64,000 bases of DNA from positions 405,754 through 469,753 of the forward strand of contig JAKLFF010000001.1 in assembly GCA_022711335.1 (NCBI GenBank). The letters are read 5' to 3'. This DNA comes from Patescibacteria group bacterium. Lineage in GTDB: Bacteria; Patescibacteriota; Minisyncoccia; Moranbacterales; UBA2206. A model generated the notes under the pieces. That model was not told where the DNA came from. It searched no databases and saw nothing but the letters and a program-made list of their open reading frames with translations. The translations under genes and the position numbers were made by a program. Shown piece by piece: positions 24,729-63,056 of the stretch (its first letter is position 1; each line of letters starts with the position of its first letter).

Positions 24729-27269
24729 ATGCGCATTTTTTCACCCAAAAACAATTTAGGTTGTCACAAAAAATTAAATTTTAATTTTAACTGGAAAAAA
24801 ATCTGGAAAATTATTGGTGTTTTGTCCGGAGCTGGATTTTTATTTGTCATTGGAATTTTTGCCTGGTTTGCCAAAGATCTTCCCAGCTCCGACAATATCA
24901 GCAGCCGCGTCGTTGTTGAATCGACCAAAATCTATGACCGCACGGGAGAACATATCCTTTATGAAGTCCACGGCGAAGAGAAAAGAACCCAGATTCCCTA
25001 TTCTGAAATGCCCGAAGCTATTCGTTATGCCACCATTGCTCTTGAAGATCAGGATTTTTATAACCATCACGGCATAAAGTTAAGCGCTATTTTACGCGCT
25101 GTTTTGAAAGATTTCATTGACATGGAAAAAACCCAGGGGGGGTCAACTATTACCCAGCAGCTGATTAAAAAAACCATGCTCACGGACGAAAAGACGCTAT
25201 CGCGAAAAATTAAAGAAGTTATTTTATCACTGGAGCTGGAACAAAAATTTTCCAAAGACGAAATCATGCACATGTATCTTAATACTATCCCTTATGGCTC
25301 CAACGCTTACGGCATTGAAGCAGCCGCCCAGACTTTTTTCGGAAAACACGCCAAAGAACTGGCGCTCGACGAATCAGCACTTATCGCTTCTCTTCCCCAG
25401 GCTCCAACCTATTTTTCCCCTTATGGATCCCACGTCGAAGATTTAAAATACCGCCAGGAAAACGCTCTTCGAAAAATGAAGGATCTTGGATATATCAGCG
25501 AGAAACAATATGAAGAAGCCAAATCATCCGATATTTTCGCTAAATTGAATCCCTATCGGGAAAAAATGGACGCCCCCCATTTCGTTATGTATGTAAAGGA
25601 ATATCTGGAAAAAAATTACGGCCAACAAGCAGTGGAACAGGGCGGCCTAAAAGTTTATACCACGCTTGATTGGAACAAGCAGCAATTGGGAGAAAGAGTG
25701 GTAAGAGAAGGAGCAGAAAAAAACAAAAAATATAAAGCGGAAAACGCATCGCTTGTCGCAATGGATCCAAAAACCGGACAAATTTTAACAATGGTCGGAT
25801 CGCGCGATTATTTTGACACGACTATTGACGGACAAGTTAACGTAGCCATTCGGGACCGCCAGCCAGGATCATCTTTCAAACCTTATGTATATCTTACCGC
25901 CTTTAAAAAAGGCTATACGCCAGAAACTCAGATTTGGGACGTGGATATTAATTTTTCAACCGACAGCGGAAAAGACTATAATCCCAAAAATTACGACGGC
26001 AAGAACCGGGGGCCGCTTCAAATGAAAGACGCATTGGCAATGTCGCTTAATGTCCCGGCCGTAGAAACGCTTTATCTCGCCGGAGTAAAAGATTCCGTTG
26101 CCCAAGCCAGAGAAATGGGCATAACCACCCTCACCCAGCCTGACCGCTATGGCTTGTCCCTGGTTCTCGGCGGAGGGGAAGTGAAGCTGCTTGAGCACAC
26201 CAATGCTTTTTCCACTTTTGCTACCGGAGGAATTCGCCATAAAAAAACCGCTATAATGAAAATTCTGGATTCATCCGGGCAAGTTCTCGAAGAATATAAG
26301 CCTGATGCAGGAGAAAGAGCGGTGGATGAAAAATATGTGGCCATGATTGATTATGTTATGTCCACTAATAGCTTGCGCGCCCCAGTTTTTGGAGAAAACA
26401 ATCCATTGAAATTCGATAACCGGCCAGTTGCCGCCAAAACCGGAACAACCAACGAATGGCGCGACGGTTGGACAATGGGCTACACTCCGTCGCTTGCCGT
26501 CGGCGTTTGGGCGGGAAATAATGATAATTCCACCATGGCCCAAGGCGCAGACGGAGTTTATGTAGCCGCGCCGATTTTCCGCGCTTTCATGGACGAAGCT
26601 CTTAAAAATTATCCTGTTGAGCAATTTCCCAAATACGAAAAAGAGGAGACAGGAAAAGATGTTCTGGACGGAAAAATTACAACCAAAGAAAAACTCGACG
26701 TCTGTGAAATTCCCGACGAAGATGATAAATATTGCCTAGCTAACGATGCTTGCCCGAAAGACGATTGGGAAGAAAAGAAGTTTTCTCAAGCCCATTCTAT
26801 CCTCTATTATGTCGACAAAGATAATCCTCGCGGCGACAAACCAAGCAGTCCTGAAAAGGATCCGCAATTTGCCAATTGGGAAAAAGCGGTAAAAAGCTGG
26901 ATCAAAGGCAATAAAGACTATTCAGACAGAGAAACCCCGACAGAAGAATGCAATCCGGAGGATTTCGGCAGAGACAAAAGCGACCTGGATATCAAGACAA
27001 CGGTTTCCACTCCTGGTGACGGAGATACTATTACCTCCTCGCCCTTCACTATTAGCGCTAAGGCTGTTTCCGGATATGACATCACAAAAATGAAAATAAC
27101 AGTTGATGGAAATGAAGTCTCTTCCCAAGACGATGAGAGCAGTATCAGTTTCTCTTATTCTGTTCCAGATGATAAAAAAACATCTACCCTCAACATCAAA
27201 GTTACAGCGACCGATGAAAAAGACCGTTCTGACTCAGACAAGCTAAGCGTGAAAATAAATATACCATAA
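24729..27269 (+). CDS. Class A penicillin-binding protein (bifunctional glycosyltransferase/transpeptidase, PBP1A-like)
   Basis: N-terminal TM, then GT51 motifs (EDQDFYNHHGI, GGSTITQQL) and transpeptidase motifs (SSFKP, SLN, KTGTT). The C-terminal ~200 aa are an acidic/Ig-like extension. Confidence 0.85.
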   Translation: MRIFSPKNNLGCHKKLNFNFNWKKIWKIIGVLSGAGFLFVIGIFAWFAKDLPSSDNISSRVVVESTKIYDRTGEHILYEVHGEEKRTQIPYSEMPEAIRYATIALEDQDFYNHHGIKLSAILRAVLKDFIDMEKTQGGSTITQQLIKKTMLTDEKTLSRKIKEVILSLELEQKFSKDEIMHMYLNTIPYGSNAYGIEAAAQTFFGKHAKELALDESALIASLPQAPTYFSPYGSHVEDLKYRQENALRKMKDLGYISEKQYEEAKSSDIFAKLNPYREKMDAPHFVMYVKEYLEKNYGQQAVEQGGLKVYTTLDWNKQQLGERVVREGAEKNKKYKAENASLVAMDPKTGQILTMVGSRDYFDTTIDGQVNVAIRDRQPGSSFKPYVYLTAFKKGYTPETQIWDVDINFSTDSGKDYNPKNYDGKNRGPLQMKDALAMSLNVPAVETLYLAGVKDSVAQAREMGITTLTQPDRYGLSLVLGGGEVKLLEHTNAFSTFATGGIRHKKTAIMKILDSSGQVLEEYKPDAGERAVDEKYVAMIDYVMSTNSLRAPVFGENNPLKFDNRPVAAKTGTTNEWRDGWTMGYTPSLAVGVWAGNNDNSTMAQGADGVYVAAPIFRAFMDEALKNYPVEQFPKYEKEETGKDVLDGKITTKEKLDVCEIPDEDDKYCLANDACPKDDWEEKKFSQAHSILYYVDKDNPRGDKPSSPEKDPQFANWEKAVKSWIKGNKDYSDRETPTEECNPEDFGRDKSDLDIKTTVSTPGDGDTITSSPFTISAKAVSGYDITKMKITVDGNEVSSQDDESSISFSYSVPDDKKTSTLNIKVTATDEKDRSDSDKLSVKINIP

Positions 27270-27448
27270 GGCTTTAAATCCAAAATTCTAATATCCCTGC
27301 CTACCGGCAGGCAGGTAAATTCTAAATAATTTCAAAATCATAATATTAAAATTCTAAATAATTCCATTTATTGTTTGGTAAATTTGAATTTTGGCAGTTG
27401 TGATTTATCTAGAATTTGATGCTTGAGATTTAGAATTTTTAACTATTT

Positions 27449-42632: not shown

Positions 42633-43410
42633 AGTTTCAATTGTAATTGTCAATTTTCAAAGCAAGAAATATCTGGCATCAAATTTGCTGTCGATTAGAA
42701 ACAAGATTAGCTCTGAATTAATAAGTGAAATAATAATTGTCAATAACGACAGAAAAGAAAATCTGGAAGAAATAGAAGCTGAATTTCCAAAAATAAAATT
42801 AATTGAATGCGAAAAAAATATCGGTTTTGGAGCGGCTAATAATTTGGCCGCAAAAAAGGCGCTGGGGCGCTATTTATTTTTTTTAAACCCGGATTGTGAA
42901 ATAATAAATTGCGATATTAAAAAAATTATTTTTGAGATGGAAAAAGATGCGAAAATAGGCATTATAGGGGGACAACTTCTTAAAAAAAACGGAGAAACTC
43001 AGCAATGGAGCGCGGGAATCGAAACAAGCCTTTTAAATTTGATTAAAAATAACTTAGGTTTTTCCAGAAGCCGGAAAATTTGGAAAAGTGAAAAAAAAAT
43101 TACAACCGATTGGGTATCTGGAACGGCTATGATTATCGAGAAAAATTTATTTCAAAAAATCGGCGGTTTTGATGAAAAATTCTTTATGTATTTTGAAGAT
43201 ATGGATTTATGCGGAAGAATAAGAAAAATCGGCCGAAAGATTGTTTATTTTCCCCAGCTTAAAGCGAGACATTTAGAAGGCGGAAGCTATGAAAGGCGAG
43301 AGGTTAAAAAAAAGGATTATTACGATTCACAAGAATATTTTTTTAAAAAAAACCGACCAAAAATTGAGTTTTGGATTATAAAATCAATCAGGAATTTTTT
43401 GTATGTTTAA
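42604..43410 (+). CDS. Family 2 glycosyltransferase
   Basis: VSIVIVNFQSKKYL...IIVNNDRKEN...FLNPDCEI.... The start is probably the ATG at 42604 (track ORF 42559). Confidence 0.65.
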   Translation: MEISAAQKYKVSIVIVNFQSKKYLASNLLSIRNKISSELISEIIIVNNDRKENLEEIEAEFPKIKLIECEKNIGFGAANNLAAKKALGRYLFFLNPDCEIINCDIKKIIFEMEKDAKIGIIGGQLLKKNGETQQWSAGIETSLLNLIKNNLGFSRSRKIWKSEKKITTDWVSGTAMIIEKNLFQKIGGFDEKFFMYFEDMDLCGRIRKIGRKIVYFPQLKARHLEGGSYERREVKKKDYYDSQEYFFKKNRPKIEFWIIKSIRNFLYV

Positions 43411-44647
43411 TTTTATCCTGCTTTTCTTAATCTACCTGCCTTTTCAGCTGGCGCTTAATCCAACCGAGGGTATCGATCTGGCTTCAATCAGGGTTATTAT
43501 CCTCCTCCTTTTTCTGCTATGGCTGGCTAAGGGACTCAAAAATAAAAAGGTGCTCATAAAGAACAATTCGAGCACAGTTTTAATTATTTTTTTTCTAGCT
43601 TTTAATTTAATTTCAATCGCTGTTTCGGGAAATTTAGACTGGTCAGTAAGGAAGCTCCTGTTTCTTTTTTCAATTTTTCCCGTTTATTTTGTGTTTTCTG
43701 ATATCATTTCCGATAAAAATAAGATGGAAAAAGCGGCAAAGGTTTTAGTCTGGAGCGGGAGCGCCGCCGCTTTTTTGGGAATCATCCAGTTTTTGTTACA
43801 ATTTTTGATAGGTCTTGAAAAAACTTATAAAATTTGGGCGAATTTCATCATCTGGCCTTTTTTGGGAAACAATTTCAGCGAAGCGGTTCTTAAAAATTCC
43901 AGCTGGCTTGTGAATATTTCAGGAAAAACGATTCTTAGGGCAACTTCTACTTTCCCAGATCCCCATATGCTTGCTTTTTTTCTAGGAATCTTGATTCCCT
44001 TGTCGCTGGGATTATTTCTAAAATCAAAAAAACCGCTATACCTGTTTTTTTTCACAGTTTTATTTGTTGGCGATGTCCTAACTTTTTCTAGAGGCGGATA
44101 TATTGGGCTTTTAGCGGGAGCTCTGGCAATGTTTTTTTCACTTTGGAAAAAATTCGGCCTAAAATATAAAATAACTTTATTTTTAGCAGCAGGGATGATA
44201 GCTGGCGTTCTGCTTATCCCCGGTCCGATTTCAACCAGATTTATTTCTAGTTTGCATCTGAATGAAGGTTCAAATGCCGGAAGAATTGAGATGTGGCAAA
44301 GAGCCGGAGAAATTATTTTAGACAAGCCGCTTTTTGGAACGGGGATTGGCAATTATCCCCTTGAAATCAAACCTGACGCCAGTTATCGCGATCCTATTTA
44401 TGCGCATAATACCTATTTGGATGTTGCTGTGGAAACAGGAATAGCCAATGCCATTATTTGGATAACGCTTCTGGCGGGCTCCGCTTTTATTTTTATAAAA
44501 AAAGCGAAAAAAGAGCCTTTCTTTTTTTGGCTGGCGATAAGTCTGGTTATTTTTTTTGCTCATTCTTTGGTTGAAACGGCTATTTATTCACCGGTTGTAC
44601 TGATATTGCTTTTGGTAATAATAAGTTTTACAAATGTTGAAGAGTAA
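43403..44647 (+). CDS. O-antigen ligase/polymerase-family membrane protein (Wzy_C-like)
   Basis: 414 aa polytopic with a large loop and ...FSRGGYIGLLAGALAMFF..., typical of the O-antigen ligase family. Confidence 0.5.
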   Translation: MFNFILLFLIYLPFQLALNPTEGIDLASIRVIILLLFLLWLAKGLKNKKVLIKNNSSTVLIIFFLAFNLISIAVSGNLDWSVRKLLFLFSIFPVYFVFSDIISDKNKMEKAAKVLVWSGSAAAFLGIIQFLLQFLIGLEKTYKIWANFIIWPFLGNNFSEAVLKNSSWLVNISGKTILRATSTFPDPHMLAFFLGILIPLSLGLFLKSKKPLYLFFFTVLFVGDVLTFSRGGYIGLLAGALAMFFSLWKKFGLKYKITLFLAAGMIAGVLLIPGPISTRFISSLHLNEGSNAGRIEMWQRAGEIILDKPLFGTGIGNYPLEIKPDASYRDPIYAHNTYLDVAVETGIANAIIWITLLAGSAFIFIKKAKKEPFFFWLAISLVIFFAHSLVETAIYSPVVLILLLVIISFTNVEE

Positions 44648-44696
44648 AATGTCCGCCAAAGGCGGATCCGCCTTTGGCGGAAAGAAAATATTTAAC

Positions 44697-45863
44697 ATGG
44701 AAAATCTAATTTATTTGGCAGTTATCTTTTTGCCGGCATATCTCGTCCGGTTTAAAATATTTGGTATCCCGACTAATATTCTAGAAATGCTGATTTTGAT
44801 AATTTTTATTAGATGGATTATTGGTTGTGGTAGAGACGCATTGCAATGCGTCTCTACGATAGGCTATAAAAAATATATTATACCGATATTTTTTATTTTT
44901 CTAGGGCTTGCCATTTCAACATTAGCTAACGGGGGGTATGCGGCAGGCCTTGGCATAATCAAAAGCTGGTTCTTTTTTCCAATGCTATTTGTTTTTTTGG
45001 CAAGTCAGATTTTAGATAAAGAAAAAATAATAAATGTTTATAAATCCCTTTATTTATCCGCTTTTTTAGTTTCATTGATATCTTTGGGATATTTGTTTTC
45101 GGGGCATATTACATATGATGGAAGATTGCAGGGGTTTTTCAATTCGCCGAATTATTTGGCGATGTACCTTGCGCCGGCGCTGATAATGTTGGTGCAAGTT
45201 CAAAGTTTTCCATCGAAGGCGGATCAGCTTATGGCTGAAAAGCTAAAAGTTTTGATTTTATTATCCGGATCAATTATATTAATTACTTTTTATTTTACTT
45301 ACTCTTACGCTGCTTGGATTTCTGTGATTTTGAGCCTAATTATGGTTTCTATTATTAAAAACAAAGCGCTGGTTAAAAATAAAACAATAATCATTTTAGT
45401 TTTGTTAGCTGCGTCGTTATTTATAATCCAGCTAAATAGTGAAAAATTAATTAATCTTAAAAATTATAATCGATCTTCCTTGGAATCAAGGATAATAATC
45501 TGGAAATCAGCTGAAAAAATGTTGGAGAATAACTGGGTTTTTGGAATCGGACCGGGGAATTTTCAGGAAAAATATCTTGAGTATCAAAAATATTACCCGC
45601 CTTATCTCGAATGGGCGGTTCCCCACCCGCACAACTTATACCTGGCTTTTTGGCTCTACGGAGGAGTTTTAGGGATTTTGGGATTTATCTTTCTGCTTGG
45701 TTTTTGGCTTGAGGATATTATTAAAAAAAGCGACAGCATAGTTAAATTTATCGCTTTTAGCATAATGTTCTATATTTTGATCCACGGAGCGATTGATACG
45801 AATTATTTCAAAAATGATCTGGCGATAATTTTTTGGCTGAATTTTCTGATTTTTAAAATATAA
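44697..45863 (+). CDS. O-antigen ligase-family membrane protein (WaaL/Wzy-like)
   Basis: Polytopic. ...HPHNLYLAFWLYGGVLGILGFIFLLG... is the O-antigen ligase signature region. The start was set at 44697 because the upstream part of the track ORF contains a 28-bp perfect palindrome (44651-44678). Confidence 0.55.
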   Translation: MENLIYLAVIFLPAYLVRFKIFGIPTNILEMLILIIFIRWIIGCGRDALQCVSTIGYKKYIIPIFFIFLGLAISTLANGGYAAGLGIIKSWFFFPMLFVFLASQILDKEKIINVYKSLYLSAFLVSLISLGYLFSGHITYDGRLQGFFNSPNYLAMYLAPALIMLVQVQSFPSKADQLMAEKLKVLILLSGSIILITFYFTYSYAAWISVILSLIMVSIIKNKALVKNKTIIILVLLAASLFIIQLNSEKLINLKNYNRSSLESRIIIWKSAEKMLENNWVFGIGPGNFQEKYLEYQKYYPPYLEWAVPHPHNLYLAFWLYGGVLGILGFIFLLGFWLEDIIKKSDSIVKFIAFSIMFYILIHGAIDTNYFKNDLAIIFWLNFLIFKI

Positions 45864-51013: not shown

Positions 51014-52126
51014 CTAAGTGGGACAGTTTTTATATACATTATAGTTAGCTATTATTCCATCGCAATAGTTTCCTCCGCAAGCGTTTCTATCTGTACAAGA
51101 TCCACAGTAGAGCTTAGCAGCCTTTCTAATTCCAGCTTCGCTATAATCGCCGCCGCTATCAAGACGGATTTTATTTGCTGCACATTTAAGTGCGTCTTGC
51201 CGATTAAATTTGCTTCCTGAGCACCCATATCTCTTGTCATACCATGTTCCGTCTGTGAATTGCATTGCTCCTCCAGCCCCATAAAGATTATTTTTATTAC
51301 AAGCGCTTGGATTAGACATAGCAGGAGAACATTCTCTTAGCATAAAAGAAGCTAAGAGGGCAGTAGGAACTCCGCCACCGGCATTATTGAGCTCGTTTTT
51401 CAGAGAATCATTCAGATCACTGCATGTTCCAGTTGCACGTACGGCTGTCCCGCTTCCGCATCCTGCAATACATTCTGATGTCCAGCTTTGATTTCCTCCG
51501 GCATCCCGACACCATTTTTCACACTCGGCCTGATTTTGAGAAGAACTTGCACCTGACATGCTAATTGTTTTTATCTTCACCAGTTCCGGATTAATGACAT
51601 AAAGAATAAGATAAGCAGAGAGGGCCATAAGCACTCCGATTATGGCGTCGGTAATAATTCCCTTGGCTTTTTCCATTGAAGCGTTGTTTCCGGCGCTGGT
51701 GATGTACATAAAACCGCCGATCATAATCATAAGTAGCGCAGAAAGGCCGATAGTCCAAATGCCGAAATTATAAACTGCCAGAACATAGGTCGAAAAATCT
51801 CCGGTAGCGTCAAATCCCGGTATTTTTTCCATGGGAGTATAATCAAAAGATGCTGAATCTGAACTGCCGGTGCCAGTCTTAGGTTGGCTAGCGCTGGGAT
51901 TGGTTTTTGAGGCATCCGTTGATCCTGAAGGGTCATTTTTTGTAGTATAGTTTGAAACACCGCTGCTTGAGGAATCATTTTCTGGAGTATAATTTGAATC
52001 GCCTCCAAAATCTTCCGCAAAGGCCTGATTTGAATAGCTGAATAAAAAACAAAGAGACAAAACGAACAGGGCGAAAACAAAGATTGAAAATAACAAAACC
52101 GGATATTTTTTTATTTTAGTATTCAT
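51014..52126 (-). CDS. VirB2/TrbC-type pilin-like protein fused to a C-terminal lytic-transglycosylase-like (VirB1-like) Cys-rich domain
   Basis: Signal peptide and a Ser/Thr-rich linker, then the pilin core YVLAVYNFGIWTIGLSALLMIMIGGFMYITSAGNNASMEKAKGIITDAIIGVLMALSAYLILYVINP. The C-terminal domain has LRECSPAMSN...LYGAGGAMQFTDGTWYDKRYG, an E-x-S...G-x-MQ-x...Y pattern of family-1 SLT lytic transglycosylases, and many Cys. Confidence 0.55.
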   Translation of the reverse strand: MNTKIKKYPVLLFSIFVFALFVLSLCFLFSYSNQAFAEDFGGDSNYTPENDSSSSGVSNYTTKNDPSGSTDASKTNPSASQPKTGTGSSDSASFDYTPMEKIPGFDATGDFSTYVLAVYNFGIWTIGLSALLMIMIGGFMYITSAGNNASMEKAKGIITDAIIGVLMALSAYLILYVINPELVKIKTISMSGASSSQNQAECEKWCRDAGGNQSWTSECIAGCGSGTAVRATGTCSDLNDSLKNELNNAGGGVPTALLASFMLRECSPAMSNPSACNKNNLYGAGGAMQFTDGTWYDKRYGCSGSKFNRQDALKCAANKIRLDSGGDYSEAGIRKAAKLYCGSCTDRNACGGNYCDGIIANYNVYKNCPT

Positions 52127-54794
52127 TTTTATTTAAATTAGGAAAAAACGACAGAAGCACTTTGGAAAAAACGAGCATAAAAAAAGCTGTCAGAACCATT
52201 CGGATGAGGAGAATAATATATTCCGGAGCAGCCGAATACATAGAAGCCATAATTTTTTTTGGCGTATTTTTACCGGCGCTCTGAATATCAGATATTGACC
52301 CGACAAAACTGATTTGGACATTTGTTCCGATTTTCTTTTCATAAAATTCATTTATAGGCACGCCCCAATATTTAGAAAGAGCTCTTTTGGTGTTTTTGTC
52401 TTGAGTGTAAACTAGGCCTACGCCAACGCTATATGACTCACTGATTGCTTTTTCAGAAAGCGTTATTGTTCCGTCGCTGGATATTGAATATCCATAGCTG
52501 GAAGCGTTGTTTGTGTTGATTTCATATCCGTCAACATACCAGGAATAATCGCTGGCTGCCGGAGAAATTCCATAAAATTCAGCTTTTAACTTTATAGGTG
52601 TCTCAGAAAGAGCCGAAAAATTTGTCTGGCTATAATCCGGCCAATACTTTCCGTCAAGATCGATATAATATCCTAAAAGATTGGCATTGCAGACGGAAGT
52701 GTCGCCTGAAATTATTTTAACTTCCGGATCAGCCACTTCGAATGTCCTTACGAGATTTATTTTTTCTCCTTTGCTGTTTGTTGCAGAAACTTCTACGGTA
52801 TAACGGTGCCCGTTTTCTTCCAGGATCGGCAGATAAGCAGTTGATCCAACTTCCGAACTTCCAATGGGAACCAGAGCCTTTCCGTCGGCCGTCCAAATAA
52901 AATCAGTGAAATCCGACTTATTTATAGAAAGAGCTACTAGTTCATTCTTGGAGACATAACAAATGGCGTCTATTTCTCCATTGGTAACGCATAACTCTTT
53001 ACTTTTCGGGCTTAGCGATAGGTCAGAAGAAACGCTTGTTCCATAGGCCTTTATTCGTTGAGTTATATTTGAAACAGGAATAATAATTTCAGCGTAGCCT
53101 TTTCTTAGCGTGGAAGACGCTGAAATTCCTTCAGAAAGAGTAAGTTTTACGCGCAGATATTTTTTAAGATTGGGAATGTTGAGCCTTAATTTGAGAGAAT
53201 TAAGATTAAGTCCGGACAGTTGGATATTTTCAGGGAGGCGCGACTTTACGATTCTATCCCACGAATCAGGGTTGGGAGCATCGCTTTCAAATAATTCCCA
53301 GGTGTATTTGAGATAATCTTCACTTTGGGCGTTGGTTATGGACGATTGGACAGAAAGTTCGTCACCATCTTTATTATCAGGATCGTTCATGGGAAATTCA
53401 GGAGTATAGGAGAGTGATATATCCATTTTTTCCTTAGCGCCTCCTCCTTCAGAGGGATCAAAAAAATTTCCATAAAGGCAGCTATTTATGTCAGAAGCCT
53501 TTTTTATTTCAGAAAGAGAAACTCCCTGCTCATCCAAATTGACAATATCATCGAATCCGGTACAAGTTATCCCGTTGTATTGGCCAAGATAATTGGGCCC
53601 ATTAGGACAAGTGGTTGTTTGAGCATAGGCGGCGCCGGCAGTTTCTTCATAGTTTCCGTCACAATTGCTGTCTTCAATATCTGTTTTATGGGTTGTCGTT
53701 CTTATGGTTGCGATGTTTGCTACTTGAGATATCATTGTTTTTTCTGTGGTAGTGGTTGTTTGCACCGTGGCCGAACTTCCATCCGGACAGGTGCTTCCTG
53801 TCCCGACACTTACAGATTTAGATGTGCTGGTATCGGGATAGTCTTCAATATCCGTATCTCCCAAACTGCACTTGTTGTTTACTAGAGCCCACATTATTTT
53901 AAATGAAGAATCTGATTCTTGGGTCGGCTCAATGGAAATTCCTTCAATAACAACTCCAATTTCATCTCCTTCCTGATAATTCCAGGAAAAAGTATTCATT
54001 CCTAAGCCGACAACATTAGCCTCGTCGCCATTGCCTGTGTCTGCCGTATCAGGATCTTTAGGATCAGTGCGAAAAAATTCTTCTTCTCCCGAGCCGTATG
54101 AATCATCTCCAGCCTCAAAATCATGGCCTGGAGCCTCGGCAAAAAGATGTTTATTGCAGGAAATTTCATATTCATCCCCAGTGTCAACGTCGTGAATAAA
54201 ACAATGATCGCCAGTTTTTGTTCCTTTTTCTTTTTGATCATCGCCTCCCCAGATAGCCTTATATTCTTTTCCTCCGCCAGAATTATAATTTGCTTCAGCC
54301 CATTCAAAGCCATCTCCGGCAAGAATTCTTGCTGCTTTCACTTTATAGTCATTTATGTCGATTTCTCCATTTCCATCAAAGTCGCATTTTTCTTTTTGTG
54401 TTCCGGATGGAGAAGTATTTTTCTCATCTGGGCATTCGTCTGGTTTCAAATACCAGGTGAAATAAAGATTTTCAGCGGTATTTAGAAAATAGGTCGGAGT
54501 GGCGACTGCGCTGACTTTTTTTCCGGAAACGGGATTTTCAGGATTTAGGGAGATTTCAACCTGGGGCTGCTGTTTTTTTCTTCGGGAGACATTAGCGGTT
54601 TGAATTGTGTATCTAAGTTCGCTTTGATCGACTCCCATTTTGTCAAAAGCCTGATCCATAGCGGTTCCGACAACGTCTCCGGCTATGCCGCTTAAATCAA
54701 ACCAGTCTGCCTGTGCTCGGGGAGCCAAAAAAAAGGCAAAACAATCAGCGATGGCAAATGCAATCAATAATAATTTTTTAATTCTATTGTTCAT
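52116..54794 (-). CDS. Large secreted surface protein with C-terminal membrane anchor (T4SS-operon component, function unknown)
   Basis: 892 aa: signal peptide, a long hydrophilic Thr/Ser/Asp-rich ectodomain, and a DFDGNGEIDINDY calcium-binding-like loop. The C-terminal hydrophobic helix is YIILLIRMVLTAFFMLVFSKVLLSFF. Confidence 0.5.
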   Translation of the reverse strand: MNNRIKKLLLIAFAIADCFAFFLAPRAQADWFDLSGIAGDVVGTAMDQAFDKMGVDQSELRYTIQTANVSRRKKQQPQVEISLNPENPVSGKKVSAVATPTYFLNTAENLYFTWYLKPDECPDEKNTSPSGTQKEKCDFDGNGEIDINDYKVKAARILAGDGFEWAEANYNSGGGKEYKAIWGGDDQKEKGTKTGDHCFIHDVDTGDEYEISCNKHLFAEAPGHDFEAGDDSYGSGEEEFFRTDPKDPDTADTGNGDEANVVGLGMNTFSWNYQEGDEIGVVIEGISIEPTQESDSSFKIMWALVNNKCSLGDTDIEDYPDTSTSKSVSVGTGSTCPDGSSATVQTTTTTEKTMISQVANIATIRTTTHKTDIEDSNCDGNYEETAGAAYAQTTTCPNGPNYLGQYNGITCTGFDDIVNLDEQGVSLSEIKKASDINSCLYGNFFDPSEGGGAKEKMDISLSYTPEFPMNDPDNKDGDELSVQSSITNAQSEDYLKYTWELFESDAPNPDSWDRIVKSRLPENIQLSGLNLNSLKLRLNIPNLKKYLRVKLTLSEGISASSTLRKGYAEIIIPVSNITQRIKAYGTSVSSDLSLSPKSKELCVTNGEIDAICYVSKNELVALSINKSDFTDFIWTADGKALVPIGSSEVGSTAYLPILEENGHRYTVEVSATNSKGEKINLVRTFEVADPEVKIISGDTSVCNANLLGYYIDLDGKYWPDYSQTNFSALSETPIKLKAEFYGISPAASDYSWYVDGYEINTNNASSYGYSISSDGTITLSEKAISESYSVGVGLVYTQDKNTKRALSKYWGVPINEFYEKKIGTNVQISFVGSISDIQSAGKNTPKKIMASMYSAAPEYIILLIRMVLTAFFMLVFSKVLLSFFPNLNKNEY

Positions 54795-55465
54795 CTGTTT
54801 ATGCCGTATATTATATAACTGTTTACAATTATTATAAACAGCAGGCCCGAAAGATAAGGAAAAATAAACGATTTACTTTTGTAGGCCAAAAAGCCATTGG
54901 TAACCGAGAGAGCAATCGGCGCGGAAAATTGCCAGAAAAAACCGTTGCTTAAGGAGGAAAACAGGATAAATACTGCTGCCTGAATCAGAATTGACCAATG
55001 TCCGAATTTTTTGGAGAGCGCGGACAACATGAATCCTCGATAGAAAAATTCCTGGGAAAACAGCAATATATTCATAAGAAGCAGCTCATAAAGGACAAAA
55101 AATGAAAACTGGCCTATCGTATTGCTTGGCAAAGCGTATCTTTTTTGCAGCGAGGTGTAGCTGAACAGAAAATAATAAAAAATAATCAGGCTTATGAATA
55201 AAATAGCTCCGAACAGCATGCCCGTCTTCTTGTCTTTTATGTTCAATCCAAAATCCGAAAGATTTTTTTTGAGAACTATTTTTATATAGAGTGTTGGAAG
55301 TACAACTAGAAAAAAAATATTTCTAATGATGAGCTGAATAAGGCTGCCATTGTCAACCGGGAAAATGACAGACAAAATAAGGCAGGAAAAAAGCAAAAAC
55401 AAATCTATTAGCAATTCTCTATTTTCGCAGCATTTCTTGTTAAGGGGTATTGTAAAAAACGCCAT
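54791..55465 (-). CDS. CPBP (CAAX-protease/Abi)-like polytopic membrane protein, possibly degenerate
   Basis: Polytopic. SQEFFYRGF resembles CPBP motif 1 (EExxxR) with Q for E, followed by KFGHW.... The other motifs are not clearly conserved. Confidence 0.35.
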   Translation of the reverse strand: MAFFTIPLNKKCCENRELLIDLFLLFSCLILSVIFPVDNGSLIQLIIRNIFFLVVLPTLYIKIVLKKNLSDFGLNIKDKKTGMLFGAILFISLIIFYYFLFSYTSLQKRYALPSNTIGQFSFFVLYELLLMNILLFSQEFFYRGFMLSALSKKFGHWSILIQAAVFILFSSLSNGFFWQFSAPIALSVTNGFLAYKSKSFIFPYLSGLLFIIIVNSYIIYGINR

Positions 55466-56005: not shown

Positions 56006-57823
56006 TTATTCATTTTCCAATTCTTTTTTGGCTTCCTCAATTTCCAAAAGCTGCGCCGGATCGGTGGTGATTATCTGGTCTTCTGAATAGGAAGCAATGA
56101 TTTTTATCGCGACATGCCTGGTTCCGGCAAAAAATATGCCCTCTCCCACATTGGATTCCAAAAGCAAGAATTTTTCCTGATCAGTAAGATAAAAAGTTTC
56201 GCTGATAACATCAATTCCAGCAGGAGATTGTTTGAGAAGCAGTTGAATGGATGAGTTGGTAACAATGGCTTTCCCGTACCTTGAAGCTAAAAAGTCATTG
56301 ACATCCTGGGTAATAGTTGTAAACCCTGTATAATATTTCCGGCATCTTTTGGCGATTCCGAACATAAAAGAAGCCGCATCTTCATATTTCATCATAACCC
56401 AGGCTTCATCAACAAGAACCAGCCTTTTTTTGAGATTGCTTCTCATTTCATTCCAGATAAACTGAAGCACGGTGTACATGGCCACTGGGCGGAGGTCTTC
56501 TTCCATGTCCCGGATGTTAAAAACAAACATCTGATTGTCAACTTTTACATTGGTTGTATGGTTTAAAAATCCGGAAAAAATTCCTTCCGTATATTTTTCC
56601 AGCCTTATCGCCAGCAATTCCCCGCCTTCCATATTGCGAAGAACCTGGTAAAGATCTGACATGGTTGGAAAAGATTCTTTTGAAAGCGCGTTAAAATTGG
56701 TTTGAGCCGTAATATCCCGAACTTCATAGGTTTCGCGCACAGCTCGGTCCAGAATAGAATCTTCTTCAGGTGTGATATTTCCAAGCATAATATGAAGAAG
56801 TCCGAGGATGTTGGCAATATTATTTCTCAAAATATCCTCCGGATCTTCGTCCTCTTTTATGTGTGGAAGATCAAACGGATTGATATGGTTTTCAGAACTT
56901 AAGGATATTTTTACAAACGTTCCTCCGACAGTTTCGCAAAGATGCTTGTATTCATTTTCTGGATCAATGACAATTATTTCTGTTTCCAACATCATTGAGC
57001 GGAGAATTTCCAGTTTTACCGCATAGCTTTTTCCAGCGCCAGATTTGGCAAAGACCACCATATTGGCATTTTCCATCTGAAAGCGGTCAAAGATGACCAG
57101 GCTGTTGTTGTGGCGGTTGATTCCGTAAAGAATTCCGTTGTTATCCGAAAGATTTGAGGAAACAAAAGGAAAGGTTGTGGAAAGCGGAGCGCTGTTCATG
57201 CTGGTTCCTGTATCCAGTTCATCATTAGCCAGGGGAAGCGACGAGTTGAATCCTTGTTCAGATTTGAAAACGGCCGGCTTGACGTAGACTAATTGCGCTT
57301 CAAGGATAGATTCAATGTTTTTGGCTGCCTCGCTGACTTCTTTTTCTGTTTCTCCATAAACAGTTATATATAGGCCGAAGCGGAAGAATTTTTCGGTTCC
57401 CTGCTGAAGCTTGTCACGCAATTCCTCAATGTCCTGAATAGCAGTTTCGAGGGCTGGATCGCGAATGAGGCCCTTTTCTTGCTCCATATGCGCTCTTGAT
57501 TGAACTTGAGTGGCGCTTTTTTTGAGGGTTTTCAAAACATCATAAGTTTCGATGGGATGGACAAACATGGAAATATCAATCGGCATGTCGATGTTTATAA
57601 TCGGAGAAAACCAATTGCTTTGGAGATAGCGGGGATAAGCAATGACAAAAATAGTCTGAGCCAGAGTTTCTCCGACGCGAATGCTTCTGGGATTTATCTT
57701 TATGGCGGCTGGGGCAATCAAATCATTGAGGCGCGCCACTCCCTCCTGGTAATATTTCTCCGATTCCAAAATTTCGTCTTTTCTTGTTTCGATGCCGCTT
57801 GTTTTTTTGAATGGGTTAAGCAT
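56006..57823 (-). CDS. Type IV secretion VirB4/TraC-family ATPase
   Basis: Walker A VVFAKSGAGKS, Walker B RLVLVDEAWVMM, and a C-terminal ...ITQDVNDF...LLLKQ region. The N-terminal region (IKINPRSIRVGETLAQTIFVIAYPRYLQSNWFSPIINIDMPIDISMFVHPI) is characteristic of VirB4. Confidence 0.85.
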   Translation of the reverse strand: MLNPFKKTSGIETRKDEILESEKYYQEGVARLNDLIAPAAIKINPRSIRVGETLAQTIFVIAYPRYLQSNWFSPIINIDMPIDISMFVHPIETYDVLKTLKKSATQVQSRAHMEQEKGLIRDPALETAIQDIEELRDKLQQGTEKFFRFGLYITVYGETEKEVSEAAKNIESILEAQLVYVKPAVFKSEQGFNSSLPLANDELDTGTSMNSAPLSTTFPFVSSNLSDNNGILYGINRHNNSLVIFDRFQMENANMVVFAKSGAGKSYAVKLEILRSMMLETEIIVIDPENEYKHLCETVGGTFVKISLSSENHINPFDLPHIKEDEDPEDILRNNIANILGLLHIMLGNITPEEDSILDRAVRETYEVRDITAQTNFNALSKESFPTMSDLYQVLRNMEGGELLAIRLEKYTEGIFSGFLNHTTNVKVDNQMFVFNIRDMEEDLRPVAMYTVLQFIWNEMRSNLKKRLVLVDEAWVMMKYEDAASFMFGIAKRCRKYYTGFTTITQDVNDFLASRYGKAIVTNSSIQLLLKQSPAGIDVISETFYLTDQEKFLLLESNVGEGIFFAGTRHVAIKIIASYSEDQIITTDPAQLLEIEEAKKELENE

Positions 57824-57919
57824 TGATATGCTGTTATCCTTTGTTCAGATCCAAGTCTGAACTAAGGATCTATAATGTATTATTTGTAGTTTTGTTTGTA
57901 TAATATAATTCCAGCTAAT

Positions 57920-57992
57920 TTTTTGCAGATCCCTGCCTGCCGACAGGCAGGCTTCGCGTTGATTTCGCGATCAACGTTCAGGATGGCGCCGT
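57920..57992. repeat. Two adjacent hairpins in the spacer between the two VirB4-related ORFs
   Basis: CCCTGCCTGCCGACAGGCAGG (the same hairpin family as 27291-27312 downstream of PBP1A) followed by CGCGTTGATTTCGCGATCAACG. Confidence 0.5.
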
Positions 57993-58002
57993 TTTAAGAG
58001 TG

Positions 58003-58689
58003 TTAATTTAGTTCCAATTTGCCGCTGTCAGCAAGGCCGACTGAATTATAAACGCTGGGATTGTATGAATTGAACAATAACTCAATTATTTCCTGGGTTT
58101 TGAGCGGAACGATCCGAACCCCGATTCCAGAAAGAGCGGCAGTTACATGGTCTACTCTTTGAAAAAGCTGGCTTTTGTAAGTTTCAAAATTTTCTCTTTT
58201 TTCCAGGATATTTTTTCTGGGATTAATCAGGCTTCCGATGTTCGAAAAAAATCCTTTTTCTTGATTTTCAATCGGAGAAAAGGGAATGATAATATAGAAA
58301 TTTTTGTCCATTATATTGGATGAGGATGTCAACTGGCTGATGAAATTTTTATATTCGGAAATTTGAAACCTCAAAAGCTCATTGGGCTGCTGCTTTTCAT
58401 GCTGGGAAAGAAAATCCAGATAGTTTTCCATATTCAATTTTCGCGAACTTATGAGAATTTGAAGGGGAAAATCTATGGAATTGAGAAAATTTTGGTATTG
58501 GCTGACAATTGCTTCCTGCTCGTCGGTAGATTTTAGCTCAAAATTGATTGCAGAGACAGCCAAAACTGCCCGAAGCGCTCCGTTTTTTAGAACAATAACG
58601 TCTTCCCTGATCTCTGCGACATCCAGATATTTTTGGGTAGCGGCAGTGGAAGTTTCAGCCGTTATTTTTTTTGAGTGTAATATTTCCAT
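58003..58689 (-). CDS. VirB4 N-terminal-domain-like protein (probable detached first part of VirB4)
   Basis: Hydrophilic 228 aa. VAEIREDVIVLKNGALRAVLAVSAINFELKSTDEQEAIVSQYQNFLNSIDFPLQILISSRK matches the conserved start of the CagE/TrbE/VirB4 N-terminal domain (...l.dGs...v..v.g..f.l.s.eeq......f..fLn.l....qi...s.r). 228 + 605 aa is about the length of a full-size VirB4. Assigned from memory of family patterns. Confidence 0.4.
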   Translation of the reverse strand: MEILHSKKITAETSTAATQKYLDVAEIREDVIVLKNGALRAVLAVSAINFELKSTDEQEAIVSQYQNFLNSIDFPLQILISSRKLNMENYLDFLSQHEKQQPNELLRFQISEYKNFISQLTSSSNIMDKNFYIIIPFSPIENQEKGFFSNIGSLINPRKNILEKRENFETYKSQLFQRVDHVTAALSGIGVRIVPLKTQEIIELLFNSYNPSVYNSVGLADSGKLELN

Positions 58690-58693
58690 AAAT

Positions 58694-59086
58694 CTATTTT
58701 AAATCCAGTATTTTTGAAATTTCTTCTATTTTTTGGCTGTTTAATTCTTTTTTCTTTAGCGGTCTAGGCTTATTTTTGGCTGTTTTTCTGACTGGCACGT
58801 CATTTTCTGCAGCCCTTTTCCATATATACATACGAGGGCGGAAAATAAAAGAAATTGACGATCCGATAAAAGTAATCAGAGAGACGTTGTAAGGACGATA
58901 AAAAGCTAAGGCTCCGAAAATAATTCCTACGATTACGCAAGAAATGACAAAGGCGGACGTATCGAGCAGATTAAAAAGAACAAGAAGGACTACTCCTCCG
59001 AGCGCCAGCCAGCCCAGCTGCTTGGCAGTGAGCGGACCTACGATCTTGTCTTCGATGTCTATAAATTGTGGAACATTGAACAGCAT
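58694..59086 (-). CDS. PrgI-family (VirB3-like) small membrane protein
   Basis: 130 aa: FIDIEDKIVGPLTAKQLGWLALGGVVLLVLFNLL + a second TM, matching the PrgI/VirB3-like pattern (a charged motif, then 2 TM). It sits directly upstream of the VirB4-related ORFs. Confidence 0.55.
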   Translation of the reverse strand: MLFNVPQFIDIEDKIVGPLTAKQLGWLALGGVVLLVLFNLLDTSAFVISCVIVGIIFGALAFYRPYNVSLITFIGSSISFIFRPRMYIWKRAAENDVPVRKTAKNKPRPLKKKELNSQKIEEISKILDLK

Positions 59087-60791: not shown

Positions 60792-63056
60792 TTAGGCTAA
60801 ATTATTCAAATACAAATCTTTTTTAATTACTTTCAATGTGCTTTGTCCATTAATTCCAAGAGGAGTGGTTGAAGCTTTAAAATAACTGATGATATCTCTT
60901 TTTGTTTGATTGCTACTAATATTTTGGACAATTTCTTTGATTTTTCCTGAATTTATATTTTCAGTGAAGGAATTTCTTTGTGATGTGGTTAGTGAACCAA
61001 AATCAAGTTCTTTTAGGGTATCTTTGTTTCCGGTTTTGAAAATATTTTCCGTAAAGCTATCATCGGCTATTTTGCCCCAAACAGCAGTGTATGCTTTTTG
61101 TATATTTTTATGGACCTCATCAGTGTTCAAATTGAATTTTCCACTGGTAGCAAGTTTGTCGAGAGAGTTTTCGATATTCTTTTTGTAAGCTTCTCCTTTT
61201 CCTTTGGCTTCCAAAAGAGTGTCCATGTTTATAGCTCGTTCACTAAAGGCTAATTCCAAAATATTTTCATTTGCAAACACATTGCTAGACCATTTTTTAG
61301 GATCGGACTGGTTGCTGTTTAGGTATGCTTTTATGGCTGATTCCCAATTCGCTGGATCTGATTTTAGGTGCGAGAAAGCTGTTTCTGGATCATAGGCCTT
61401 GAGTTTGTTGTTGATCTGATTGAATACTTGGCTATCTGTTCCAAATTCTTTGCGCATTTGTTCGTAAGCTATTTTGTCAACGCCTGAAGCGTAAAGCGCA
61501 TTTTTATTAGCCAATTCCTTAAGAGCGGCTGCTCTTACAAATTTGTCCTTGGAAGAAGCAAGTTGCCTTAGTTCGTCAGGAGTTTTGTTTTCCATATCAT
61601 TTCTTTTGGATTCATTTTCCACTTTTTGGGACAAATCTCTTTGATATCTAAGCCGGGCATCTTTTGAAGCTACTCCAAAAAGCCGATCTTGCTGGCTTCC
61701 GGCGAAAGTTCCTAAGCGATTCCTCCACCAGTCCTTTTGAGCTTCTTTTCGTCTGGTTCTATAAGATTCCCAGGCACCCATCGCGAATCCGGCCGGAGTG
61801 AGGGTTTTTCCGGCCCAGCCCATAAACTTCTGTCCCCTTCCCACCACCGCGCTGGCGCCGGCAATGCTCATAGTTTGGGCGGTGCCGATGCCGATCCAAA
61901 GAATCACTATAGGGATGGCGAAAAATGAAGCGGCAGCAATAAACCCAGGATCACTGGCACTTTGTCCTGTGATTGCATTCATCGAGCCTTTTGTATAGCT
62001 AATAGCCCCCATCATTCTGGTAGCAACAACGAGCATAAAAAGCATAATTGGACCAAAAAAAGCATATTTAAAGAGCATATCCCACCACTTGCTGGCATAT
62101 GAGGAAAGAAAAGGAACAATTGATCCGACAAAAGCAATGGAGGAAAAAATAACCAAAATAGTGAGTGCGACAAGTCGTATTATAAAGAGAATGGCAATGA
62201 TTAGAAGGGTAACTGCCAGAATAAAACTAAAAATTACGGCAGCAATAAGAAATGACAGATCGGCACCGATTTTTTGGGGCGGGTGAAGTATTAAATCCAA
62301 ATTAGAATTTTTAGCGATTTCCGCAAACCATGAACCAGCACTTTTATCAAAACCTAATGCTTTTGCAAAATAGTACATTATAATATTAGAAAAATCGATA
62401 ATGACTCTGGCAATTGGGAAACTGAAATTAACAAGAAGCGCCATGATAATCAGCGTTAGGAGAATTTTTTTGTAGTTGAATTTTTCAACCTGGAAAACTG
62501 TGCAAAAAGCAGAAAAAAGAAGAACTAAAATAAAAGAGATATTGAGAGTGTCTCGCACCATACCCCATATTTGATAAATTATAGGGTTGCTCATAACATC
62601 AGTAAAATTTTTTGCATCTAGAATCCAAATAAAAAGAGTTGAAGACACTTCCAACATTTTCTCTAAAAACAGAAGTACATAAAGCAATAGGCACTTTACA
62701 AAATTAATTAGAACGCTAAGACTTATAATATCTCCCATTCCCATTCCACAAACAGTGTCTCCCATCTGTTGTTGAACTATCTCGCCAGTTGTTTTTTTGA
62801 TTTCATCTGATCCATTATCGAATTTAAAATTAGCTGTTTGATTATTGGAATTACAGTATTGAGCACAAGCTTCTTTCGTGGGCTGATCAACTGGGGTTAA
62901 ATAGATAAAATTGCCTCGTTCCCAATCTTCTTTTGAAGCGCATTCACATGATTTAGCATGAACATGAGTAGAAAATCCAAAACCAGCCGCGAAGACAAAA
63001 ATGAAAATCGCAGCCAGAATAAGTTTTTGTTTTTTCTTTATATTTTGATTAAACAT
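60792..63056 (-). CDS. VirB6/TrbL-like polytopic inner-membrane protein with N-terminal Cys-containing ectodomain and long cytoplasmic C-terminal tail
   Basis: 754 aa: signal peptide + CxC...C...C domain, at least 6 TM helices in the middle (…ILAVTLLIIAILFIIRLVALTILVIFSSIAFVGSIVPFL…), and a ~300-aa hydrophilic tail. This architecture is typical of VirB6/TrbL channel subunits. Confidence 0.5.
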   Translation of the reverse strand: MFNQNIKKKQKLILAAIFIFVFAAGFGFSTHVHAKSCECASKEDWERGNFIYLTPVDQPTKEACAQYCNSNNQTANFKFDNGSDEIKKTTGEIVQQQMGDTVCGMGMGDIISLSVLINFVKCLLLYVLLFLEKMLEVSSTLFIWILDAKNFTDVMSNPIIYQIWGMVRDTLNISFILVLLFSAFCTVFQVEKFNYKKILLTLIIMALLVNFSFPIARVIIDFSNIIMYYFAKALGFDKSAGSWFAEIAKNSNLDLILHPPQKIGADLSFLIAAVIFSFILAVTLLIIAILFIIRLVALTILVIFSSIAFVGSIVPFLSSYASKWWDMLFKYAFFGPIMLFMLVVATRMMGAISYTKGSMNAITGQSASDPGFIAAASFFAIPIVILWIGIGTAQTMSIAGASAVVGRGQKFMGWAGKTLTPAGFAMGAWESYRTRRKEAQKDWWRNRLGTFAGSQQDRLFGVASKDARLRYQRDLSQKVENESKRNDMENKTPDELRQLASSKDKFVRAAALKELANKNALYASGVDKIAYEQMRKEFGTDSQVFNQINNKLKAYDPETAFSHLKSDPANWESAIKAYLNSNQSDPKKWSSNVFANENILELAFSERAINMDTLLEAKGKGEAYKKNIENSLDKLATSGKFNLNTDEVHKNIQKAYTAVWGKIADDSFTENIFKTGNKDTLKELDFGSLTTSQRNSFTENINSGKIKEIVQNISSNQTKRDIISYFKASTTPLGINGQSTLKVIKKDLYLNNLA

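Follow-up and report, generated by a model that had tools for sequence, protein, structure and literature searches.

In the 64,000-nt stretch of contig JAKLFF010000001.1 analysed here (the window), a chromosomal type IV secretion system (T4SS) cluster of Candidatus Moranbacteria (Patescibacteria/candidate phyla radiation, CPR) is encoded, whose VirB4 motor is encoded by two adjacent genes. A 228-aa TrsD-like protein is predicted to supply the first part of the VirB4 N-terminal domain, and a 605-aa ATPase of the CD1110 family begins where the TrsD-like protein ends. The favoured interpretation, to which a probability of roughly 0.88 is assigned, is that this two-gene VirB4 is ancient and conserved and that the 179-bp palindromic spacer between its genes was inserted later. 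All coordinates are those of the window and the core genes are all located on the minus strand (Table 1). The TrsD-like gene follows the PrgI (PF12666) gene after a gap of 4 nt and lies between it and the ATPase gene; a VirB3-like gene thus precedes VirB4, as expected of the family, and the PrgI gene occupies the same place in the related loci L001 and L002.

The 228-aa protein matches the N-terminal positions of the NCBIfam VirB4 profiles (E = 3e-10 to 2e-3). Residues 19-136 correspond to positions 2-120 of 752 in the CD1110 profile, residues 6-136 to positions 91-234 of 894 in Mbov_0397 (E = 3e-10) and residues 24-166 to positions 14-148 of 792 in TIGR00929, and the NCBIfam model of the TrsD/TraD subfamily, NF041427, is also matched (E = 1.6e-8). 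An AlphaFold2 model built on an alignment of 86 homologues has a mean predicted local distance difference test (pLDDT) score of 86. When this model was compared to the PDB using Foldseek, the top 14 matches were all TrwK/VirB4 chains of the R388 system (probability 1.0, query TM-score 0.45-0.51), while the matches that follow have probabilities below 0.2. A phmmer search of the protein against the PDB sequences gave no match and a local Pfam scan only a weak match to TraC_F_IV (E = 0.08), so that its homology is demonstrated through the NCBIfam profiles and the fold comparison. The alignment of the family with the TraC protein of the F plasmid by hhalign was not significant; the aligned TraC region, 180-219, agrees with the Pfam coordinates. 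PF26593 (TraC-like) is annotated on the identical protein and on all 120 homologues listed in a precomputed annotation, yet was not reported by a local Pfam-A hmmscan even at E = 10, a discrepancy which may derive from a difference in library version. The identical protein is deposited in NCBI as a hypothetical protein from a Candidatus Moranbacteria metagenome-assembled genome. As a separate small protein (within the range of ~200-270 aa) with its own stop codon, encoded next to and 179 bp upstream of virB4, the TrsD-like protein represents, by both sequence and modelled fold, the missing N-terminal piece of VirB4.

The 605-aa protein aligns over residues 30-572 with positions 185-733 of 752 in the conju_CD1110 profile, with a score of 380.3 bits, above the curated NCBIfam cutoff of 325, as well as with positions 282-893 of 894 in Mbov_0397 and 248-724 of 792 in TIGR00929. 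It matches the VirB4 C-terminal domain structure 4AG5 in the PDB (E = 1.5e-52), and residues 291-735 of TrwK align to its residues 115-553. Pfam matches comprise P-loop_TraG (E = 2e-27) and AAA_10, together with the final 100 positions of the TraC_F_IV model and of the CagE_TrbE_VirB N-domain model, and the Walker A (AKSGAGKS, 57026-57049) and Walker B (LVLVDE, 56405-56422) motifs were both verified. A complete N-terminal domain is lacking, the alignments beginning at positions 185/752, 282/894, 248/792 and 240/800 of the full-length profiles and at residue ~177-291 of TrwK. The two open reading frames (ORFs) match collinear, non-overlapping parts of five full-length profiles; beyond the three named above, this pattern is observed with SCO6880_fam, Pfam TraC_F_IV and one PHROG. 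When artificially joined into a single 833-aa sequence and searched using HMMER, they align in one stretch, residues 6-813 with positions 91-893 of 894 in Mbov_0397 and residues 27-782 with positions 17-724 of 792 in TIGR00929, with scores exceeding those of the ATPase alone. In these respects the original prediction, made from the sequence of this DNA alone, was accurate: the three ORFs and the 179-bp spacer lie on the minus strand where it had placed them; their order of VirB3-like protein, VirB4 N-terminal part and VirB4 ATPase is upheld by PF12666, NCBIfam and the Walker motifs; the N-terminal assignment of the 228-aa ORF is upheld by the NCBIfam positions and the Foldseek matches to TrwK/VirB4; the 605-aa ORF does start later in VirB4, carries both Walker motifs and does not align end-to-end with full-length VirB4 proteins; and the two ORFs tile VirB4 without overlap in both the profile coordinates and the joined alignment. 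The PHROG matched by both halves at collinear positions (4-89 and 130-364 of 555) is phrog_2666, a family annotated as 'terminase large subunit' which is probably a mislabelled VirB4-like ATPase.

Some observations weigh against this interpretation. Approximately 50-60 residues more than the profiles predict are present between the matched blocks, and the junction region is poorly modelled. The score of the 228-aa protein against NF041427 is 34.6 bits, far under the curated cutoff of 200, and an hhalign comparison of the family alignment with one staphylococcal TrsD-position protein was not significant, which argues that the kinship with the pGO1 prototype is remote. The 228-aa protein would hence be a remote relative outside the staphylococcal TrsD/TraD subfamily as NCBI defines it, TrsD-like in its working and position. 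Conserved stems in the spacer, discussed below, leave room for some function of the insert.

Alternatively, TrsD could be an independent paralogue of the VirB4 N-terminus with a role of its own, the 605-aa ATPase being complete without it and no protein having been split. The confident folding of the modelled TrsD-like protein by itself, the long C-terminal extensions of some family members (300-443 aa in total), the Haloarcula protein of 556 aa that is headed by this domain and the Gracilibacteria homologues reported not to be associated with virB4 (PMC12102498) would all accord with such a role. The 605-aa protein, however, is without exactly the segment that TrsD matches, as judged from the profile and TrwK start positions, the joined sequence scores higher and aligns in a single stretch, and the adjacency and order of the two genes are maintained in 144 of 144 loci, and this alternative is considered improbable.

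To determine the conservation of the split, 80 metagenomic loci and 80 loci from GTDB species representatives were compared, the latter located with an alignment of 14 closer sequences as query and spanning the Moranbacteria, Paceibacteria, Azam-, Giovannoni-, Doudna-, Sung-, Ryan- and Andersenbacteria. The two genes were both readable in 144 loci, and in every one of these they are adjacent and in the same order, the TrsD-like ORF ends in a stop codon and the VirB4 ORF is separate; no fused gene was found among them. The TrsD-VirB4 spacer ranges from -35 to +496 nt (median 18.5 nt), with many stop and start codons overlapping or only a few nucleotides apart (e.g. TAATG, a 1-nt overlap) and many spacers of -1 to 10 nt that hold no insert. 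Spacers at the PrgI-TrsD junction vary to a similar extent (median 33.5 nt, at least 80 nt in 47/142), and the TrsD-VirB4 junction is therefore not special. Among the 1287 homologues of the 228-aa protein in a 90%-clustered database, the 120 closest (71-100% identity) each measure 227-244 aa. A search of 1.84 billion 50%-cluster representatives returned 2373 matches, the top 150 being without exception stand-alone proteins (130-443 aa), none having the length of a VirB4 and almost all having the domain near the N-terminus; the stand-alone length of ~228 aa is retained down to 35% identity. The ratio of non-synonymous to synonymous substitution rates (dN/dS) is 0.065 for TrsD and 0.025 for VirB4 against the relative with 83% TrsD identity (L005) and 0.03-0.07 overall (~0.06 for TrsD, 0.025-0.05 for the ATPase), while TrsD shows no non-synonymous changes and 6% synonymous divergence against L003. 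These low ratios show strong purifying selection on both ORFs.

Two candidate routes to a single VirB4 chain were rejected. Some relatives have VirB4 ORFs of greater length (724-900 aa), but these are not fused full-length genes: TrsD remains separate, and a low-complexity extension at the N-terminus accounts for the additional residues. For the window, a joint product of both ORFs through read-through or frameshifting was discarded given the stop codons in all three frames of the spacer, the different frames of the 228-aa and 605-aa ORFs and the widely varying spacer length among relatives. Extensions of 130-330 aa, rich in Pro/Ser/Ala and probably disordered, are found at the N-terminus of the VirB4 ORF in eight GTDB Moraniibacteriota loci (L101, L106, L111, L114, L116, L126, L127 and L130; 51-57% TrsD identity), where they open with a short conserved motif, [IV][IV]F[RK][DE], directly after the trsD stop codon.

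The two-gene VirB4 also occurs outside the Patescibacteria. On plasmid NZ_CP062975 of Pontibacillus sp. ALD_SL1, a 274-aa TrsD-like protein (hhalign E = 1.4e-34) is followed by a 621-aa 'VirB4-like ATPase, CD1110 family', the two genes overlapping by 11 nt; the latter protein is 36% identical to the window ATPase over its full length and starts at the equivalent residue. On the Haloarcula pelagica plasmid NZ_CP126164 (L166:3986-7938) the TrsD-like domain forms the N-terminus of a 556-aa protein, which overlaps the start of a 761-aa VirB4-like ATPase that matches the window ATPase (E = 1e-41). The two-gene VirB4 therefore reaches haloarchaeal plasmids. Matches to the TrsD-like protein were found on 171 plasmid records, mostly of Bacillus and Clostridium.

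The headline of the original prediction, that a small palindromic mobile element had recently split an intact virB4 into two fragments, can be weighed against these data. The strongly structured spacer (z = -4.4), the dispersed hairpin repeat within it and the tiling of VirB4 by the two ORFs would suit such an event. The gene is, however, split in 144/144 loci whatever the spacer, and the fused, insert-free orthologue that had been proposed as a check was found in 0/144. The break point is common to the Bacillota and haloarchaeal plasmids, the Pontibacillus and Haloarcula genes being split as well, the insert is limited to the closest relatives, dN/dS in both halves shows no relaxation of selection and the stand-alone length is kept to 35% identity. 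Recent disruption is refuted by these comparative data and is regarded as extremely improbable. The second reading that had been offered, a natural two-chain VirB4, proved to be the correct one, in agreement with both the 144 loci and the published TrsD/VirB4 arrangement.

In the favoured interpretation, the fission of VirB4 would be ancient, being common to Patescibacteria, Bacillota plasmids and one haloarchaeal plasmid, with both halves kept by purifying selection, and a palindromic element would have been inserted later into a pre-existing junction, such insertions apparently being common at several junctions of the operon in this clade. In the R388 structures (PDB 7O41/8RTB), the ATPase is anchored beneath the membrane complex by the N-terminal domain of VirB4, which is in contact with VirB3. 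By analogy, PrgI/VirB3, TrsD and the ATPase may assemble non-covalently, with TrsD bridging PrgI and the part of the N-domain that remains in the ATPase (residues ~1-220). TrsD would then supply the membrane-proximal adaptor part of the VirB4 N-terminal domain and a VirB4-like protomer would be rebuilt. The confident folding of the TrsD-like protein alone (pLDDT 86) fits a break between subdomains rather than within one. A required subunit would likewise be consistent with the TrsD homologue of Southlakia epibionticum, which was found to be essential by transposon sequencing (Wang et al. 2023, as cited in PMC12102498).

The RNA of the 179-bp spacer is predicted to fold into a multi-branched structure (-49.1 kcal/mol, z = -4.44 against shuffled sequences) containing three hairpins (Table 1). 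Two hairpins of a repeat family had been proposed here, and this holds in part: the GC-rich hairpin recurs in the window, while it is the only one of the three to do so. No other exact copy of the CGTTGAT hairpin, and no second copy of either the hairpin with 14-nt arms or the whole spacer, was found in the 64-kb window, in which only a 20-23-nt module is repeated. A regular expression search for the 20-nt GC-rich hairpin CCTGCCTRCCGRYAGGCAGG identified 14 copies in ten related loci (L003, L010, L017, L046, L048, L049, L055, L056, L058 and L063), at various intergenic junctions of AT-rich Moranbacteria genomes and often inside larger palindromes with GTCATCCTGA-type ends; it may be a REP-like repeat, a terminator or a protein-binding site.

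The spacer is homologous only to that of L003 (identical TrsD; 94% identity) and, in part, to that of L005 (83% TrsD identity). Other near relatives contain a different 97-nt palindrome (L004) or spacers of 10-38 nt (L007, L008 and L011), while the more distant lineages with long spacers each have their own strong palindrome, many with GTCATCCTGA...TCAGGATGAC-type inverted ends. These ends are clear in L005, L010, L015 and L026 and decayed in the window (ATCCT...AGGAT). In L005, the end that corresponds to the hairpin with 14-nt arms has the sequence CTCAGGATGAC, which pairs with GTCATCCTGAAG at the opposite end of the element, and the AAAGGA sequence in the window would appear from this comparison to be the decayed right arm of a palindromic element. 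This sequence had been described as a fresh ribosome-binding site nine nucleotides from the virB4 start codon. It lies 13 nt upstream of the ATG, and such a role is doubtful, given its location in the 3' arm of the hairpin and the lack of a Shine-Dalgarno sequence ahead of virB4 in relatives whose spacers are short. An Rfam scan of the spacer revealed no family, with sub-threshold chance matches only, and a promoter and terminator scan of the spacer no promoter-like or terminator-like site and no U-tract terminator. The spacer is read here, from its sequence, as a passenger resembling repetitive extragenic palindromic (REP) elements or miniature inverted-repeat transposable elements (MITEs), which would have been inserted, in a recent ancestor of this lineage, at an intergenic junction that was already present, and the insert most likely has little or no function.

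A functional insert, which uncouples or tunes the expression of the ATPase relative to TrsD, would be compatible with the favoured explanation of the split. Partial termination or stabilisation of the mRNA at the GC-rich hairpin, or sequestration of AAAGGA in the hairpin with 14-nt arms, are candidate routes. The stems are kept across the window, L003 and L005 while the loops and AT-rich core vary, the fold has a z-score of -4.4 and the GC-rich hairpin recurs at the trsD-virB4 junction in lineages with 66-83% TrsD identity. Most relatives, however, are without the insert (median spacer ~18 nt) and other lineages have unrelated palindromes or a PD-(D/E)XK gene in its place, the PrgI-TrsD junction nearby shows the same behaviour, no U-tract terminator or promoter match was observed in the spacer, relatives need no Shine-Dalgarno sequence, and the spacer divergence between the window and L003 (~6%) equals the synonymous divergence. 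A function for the insert is considered unlikely.

The PD-(D/E)XK gene is found in L019 (4691-5186; 74% TrsD identity), where the 496-nt trsD-virB4 spacer contains a 131-aa ORF of this nuclease family (PF13366, E = 2e-19) flanked by long inverted repeats (AGCGATACGAATGACACGAATTGCATACGAATGC ... complement of AGCGATACGAATGACACGAATTGCATACGAATGC). In L019, a small mobile cassette seems to have been inserted between the same two genes. A more speculative proposal, which is given a rather low probability as a whole, is that the TrsD/VirB4 break corresponds to a flexible linker in the ancestral VirB4, a site at which nearly any content is tolerated, including overlapping genes, unrelated palindromes, the PD-(D/E)XK cassette and the 130-330-aa disordered Pro/Ser-rich ATPase extensions, and that the palindrome in the window was possibly co-opted to set the TrsD:VirB4 ratio. 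Such co-option may proceed through hairpin-mediated stabilisation or attenuation of the mRNA or through sequestration of the ribosome-binding region.

Several genes surrounding the two-gene VirB4 may belong to the same T4SS. The position of the 754-aa polytopic membrane protein parallels that of the large membrane proteins upstream of the VirB3-like gene on Pontibacillus and Staphylococcus plasmids, and this position and a weak profile match make it a candidate VirB6-like component. Weak PF18895 segments downstream of the T4SS core fit the description, in earlier work, of a VirB2-like pilin cluster in Patescibacteria. The region 52116-55465 (minus strand), which follows closely after virB4 and the gene of a 160-aa membrane protein, codes for a secreted or anchored protein of 892 aa that matches no family and for an Rce1-like CAAX protease of 224 aa (PF02517, E = 2.5e-6). 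Two tandem O-antigen-ligase-like genes (414 and 409 aa; Wzy_C, E ~1e-22) are located beside the T4SS cluster on the opposite strand (43403-45863, plus strand).

Table 1. Features of the trsD-virB4 locus and its surroundings, in window coordinates.
Feature	Position	Strand	Evidence or remarks
PrgI/VirB3-like small membrane protein, 130 aa	58694-59086	-	Pfam PF12666 PrgI, E = 6.2e-10, 39.9 bits against a cutoff of 27
TrsD-like protein, 228 aa, predicted stand-alone homologue of the first part of the VirB4 N-terminal domain	58003-58689	-	NCBIfam profiles and fold
Intergenic spacer, 179 bp, putative decayed composite palindromic element	57824-58002	-	RNA fold, comparison with relatives
Hairpin CGTTGAT-N6-ATCAACG	57957-57976	-	7-bp perfect stem
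GC-rich hairpin CCTGCCTG-N4-CAGGCAGG, member of a dispersed short repeat	57932-57951	-	8-bp perfect stem
Second copy of the GC-rich hairpin, 27 nt after the stop codon of the plus-strand gene 24729-27269	27296-27315	+	2 copies in the window against 0 expected
Hairpin with 14-nt arms, 3' arm containing AAAGGA	57836-57869	-	Arms 93% complementary, 6-nt loop
VirB4 ATPase, 605 aa, without the first ~180-280 positions of full-length VirB4	56006-57823	-	NCBIfam, Pfam, PDB
Polytopic membrane protein, 754 aa, candidate VirB6-like channel component	60792-63056	-	NCBIfam CD3337/EF1877 mobilome membrane protein, E = 5.7e-4, below cutoff
Protein with weak T4SS-pilin-like segment, 370 aa	51014-52126	-	Pfam PF18895 T4SS_pilin, E = 8e-5, below gathering cutoff
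Protein with weak T4SS-pilin-like segment, 574 aa	49239-50963	-	Pfam PF18895 T4SS_pilin, E = 8e-4, below gathering cutoff
Protein with weak T4SS-pilin-like segment, 444 aa	47073-48407	-	Pfam PF18895 T4SS_pilin, E = 5e-5, below gathering cutoff

Few systems have been shown to be essential to Patescibacteria in their epibiotic life, and the T4SS is one of these; a two-chain VirB4 motor therefore matters for both annotation and structural modelling. Most TrsD-like genes carry the label 'hypothetical', and the ATPase can be taken for a truncated protein. The two-gene VirB4 in this locus is ordinary and already known, the arrangement of TrsD and VirB4 in Patescibacteria having been published (Quinonero-Coronel et al. 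2025, Microb Genom, PMC12102498). According to that article, 2,272 TrsD homologues occur in Patescibacteria, 1,664 of which are associated with VirB4, and TrsD, described as a remote homologue of the N-terminal portion of VirB4, is the most abundant T4SS component recovered. In the passages of the article that were searched, the partner VirB4 is nowhere said to lack the corresponding segment, and intergenic palindromes are not discussed. TrsD is not mentioned in the main text of Guglielmini et al. (2014), nor split VirB4 in the T4SS nomenclature review. The additions made here are modest, namely the explicit tiling of one VirB4, the break point common to Bacillota and haloarchaeal plasmids and the reading of the hairpin insert as a secondary, lineage-specific passenger.

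In comparison with known systems, nothing essential distinguishes the locus from the chromosomal Patescibacteria T4SS of PMC12102498, where PrgI/VirB3, a TrsD-like gene and virB4 likewise adjoin on a CPR chromosome with pilin-like genes nearby. REP elements and bacterial interspersed mosaic elements (BIMEs), or MITE-like repeats, are similarly short, GC-rich intergenic hairpins that are dispersed, with composite palindromes (GTCATCCTGA...TCAGGATGAC in L005) between the genes of one operon, although within the window it is the 20-23-nt module alone that is repeated. The closest annotated split pair, that of Pontibacillus NZ_CP062975, shares the upstream order of a large membrane protein followed by a small protein, but is found on a Bacillota megaplasmid with overlapping genes and no spacer. 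In TrsD/TraD and TrsE/TraE of pGO1/pSK41 (MPF_FATA, pGO1 subclass), a small homologue of the VirB4 N-terminus is also encoded between a VirB3-like gene and a shortened VirB4 ATPase; these serve plasmid conjugation, whereas the chromosomal system here is thought to serve an epibiotic lifestyle, and the sequence relation is very remote. The single-chain VirB4 proteins (TrwK of R388, PDB 7O41/8RTD; TraC of F; the CD1110 and Mbov_0397 families) share the fold and the order of all segments, the TrsD model superposing on TrwK, while in the window the break in the chain falls within the region of the N-terminal domain, at approximately CD1110 positions 120-185.

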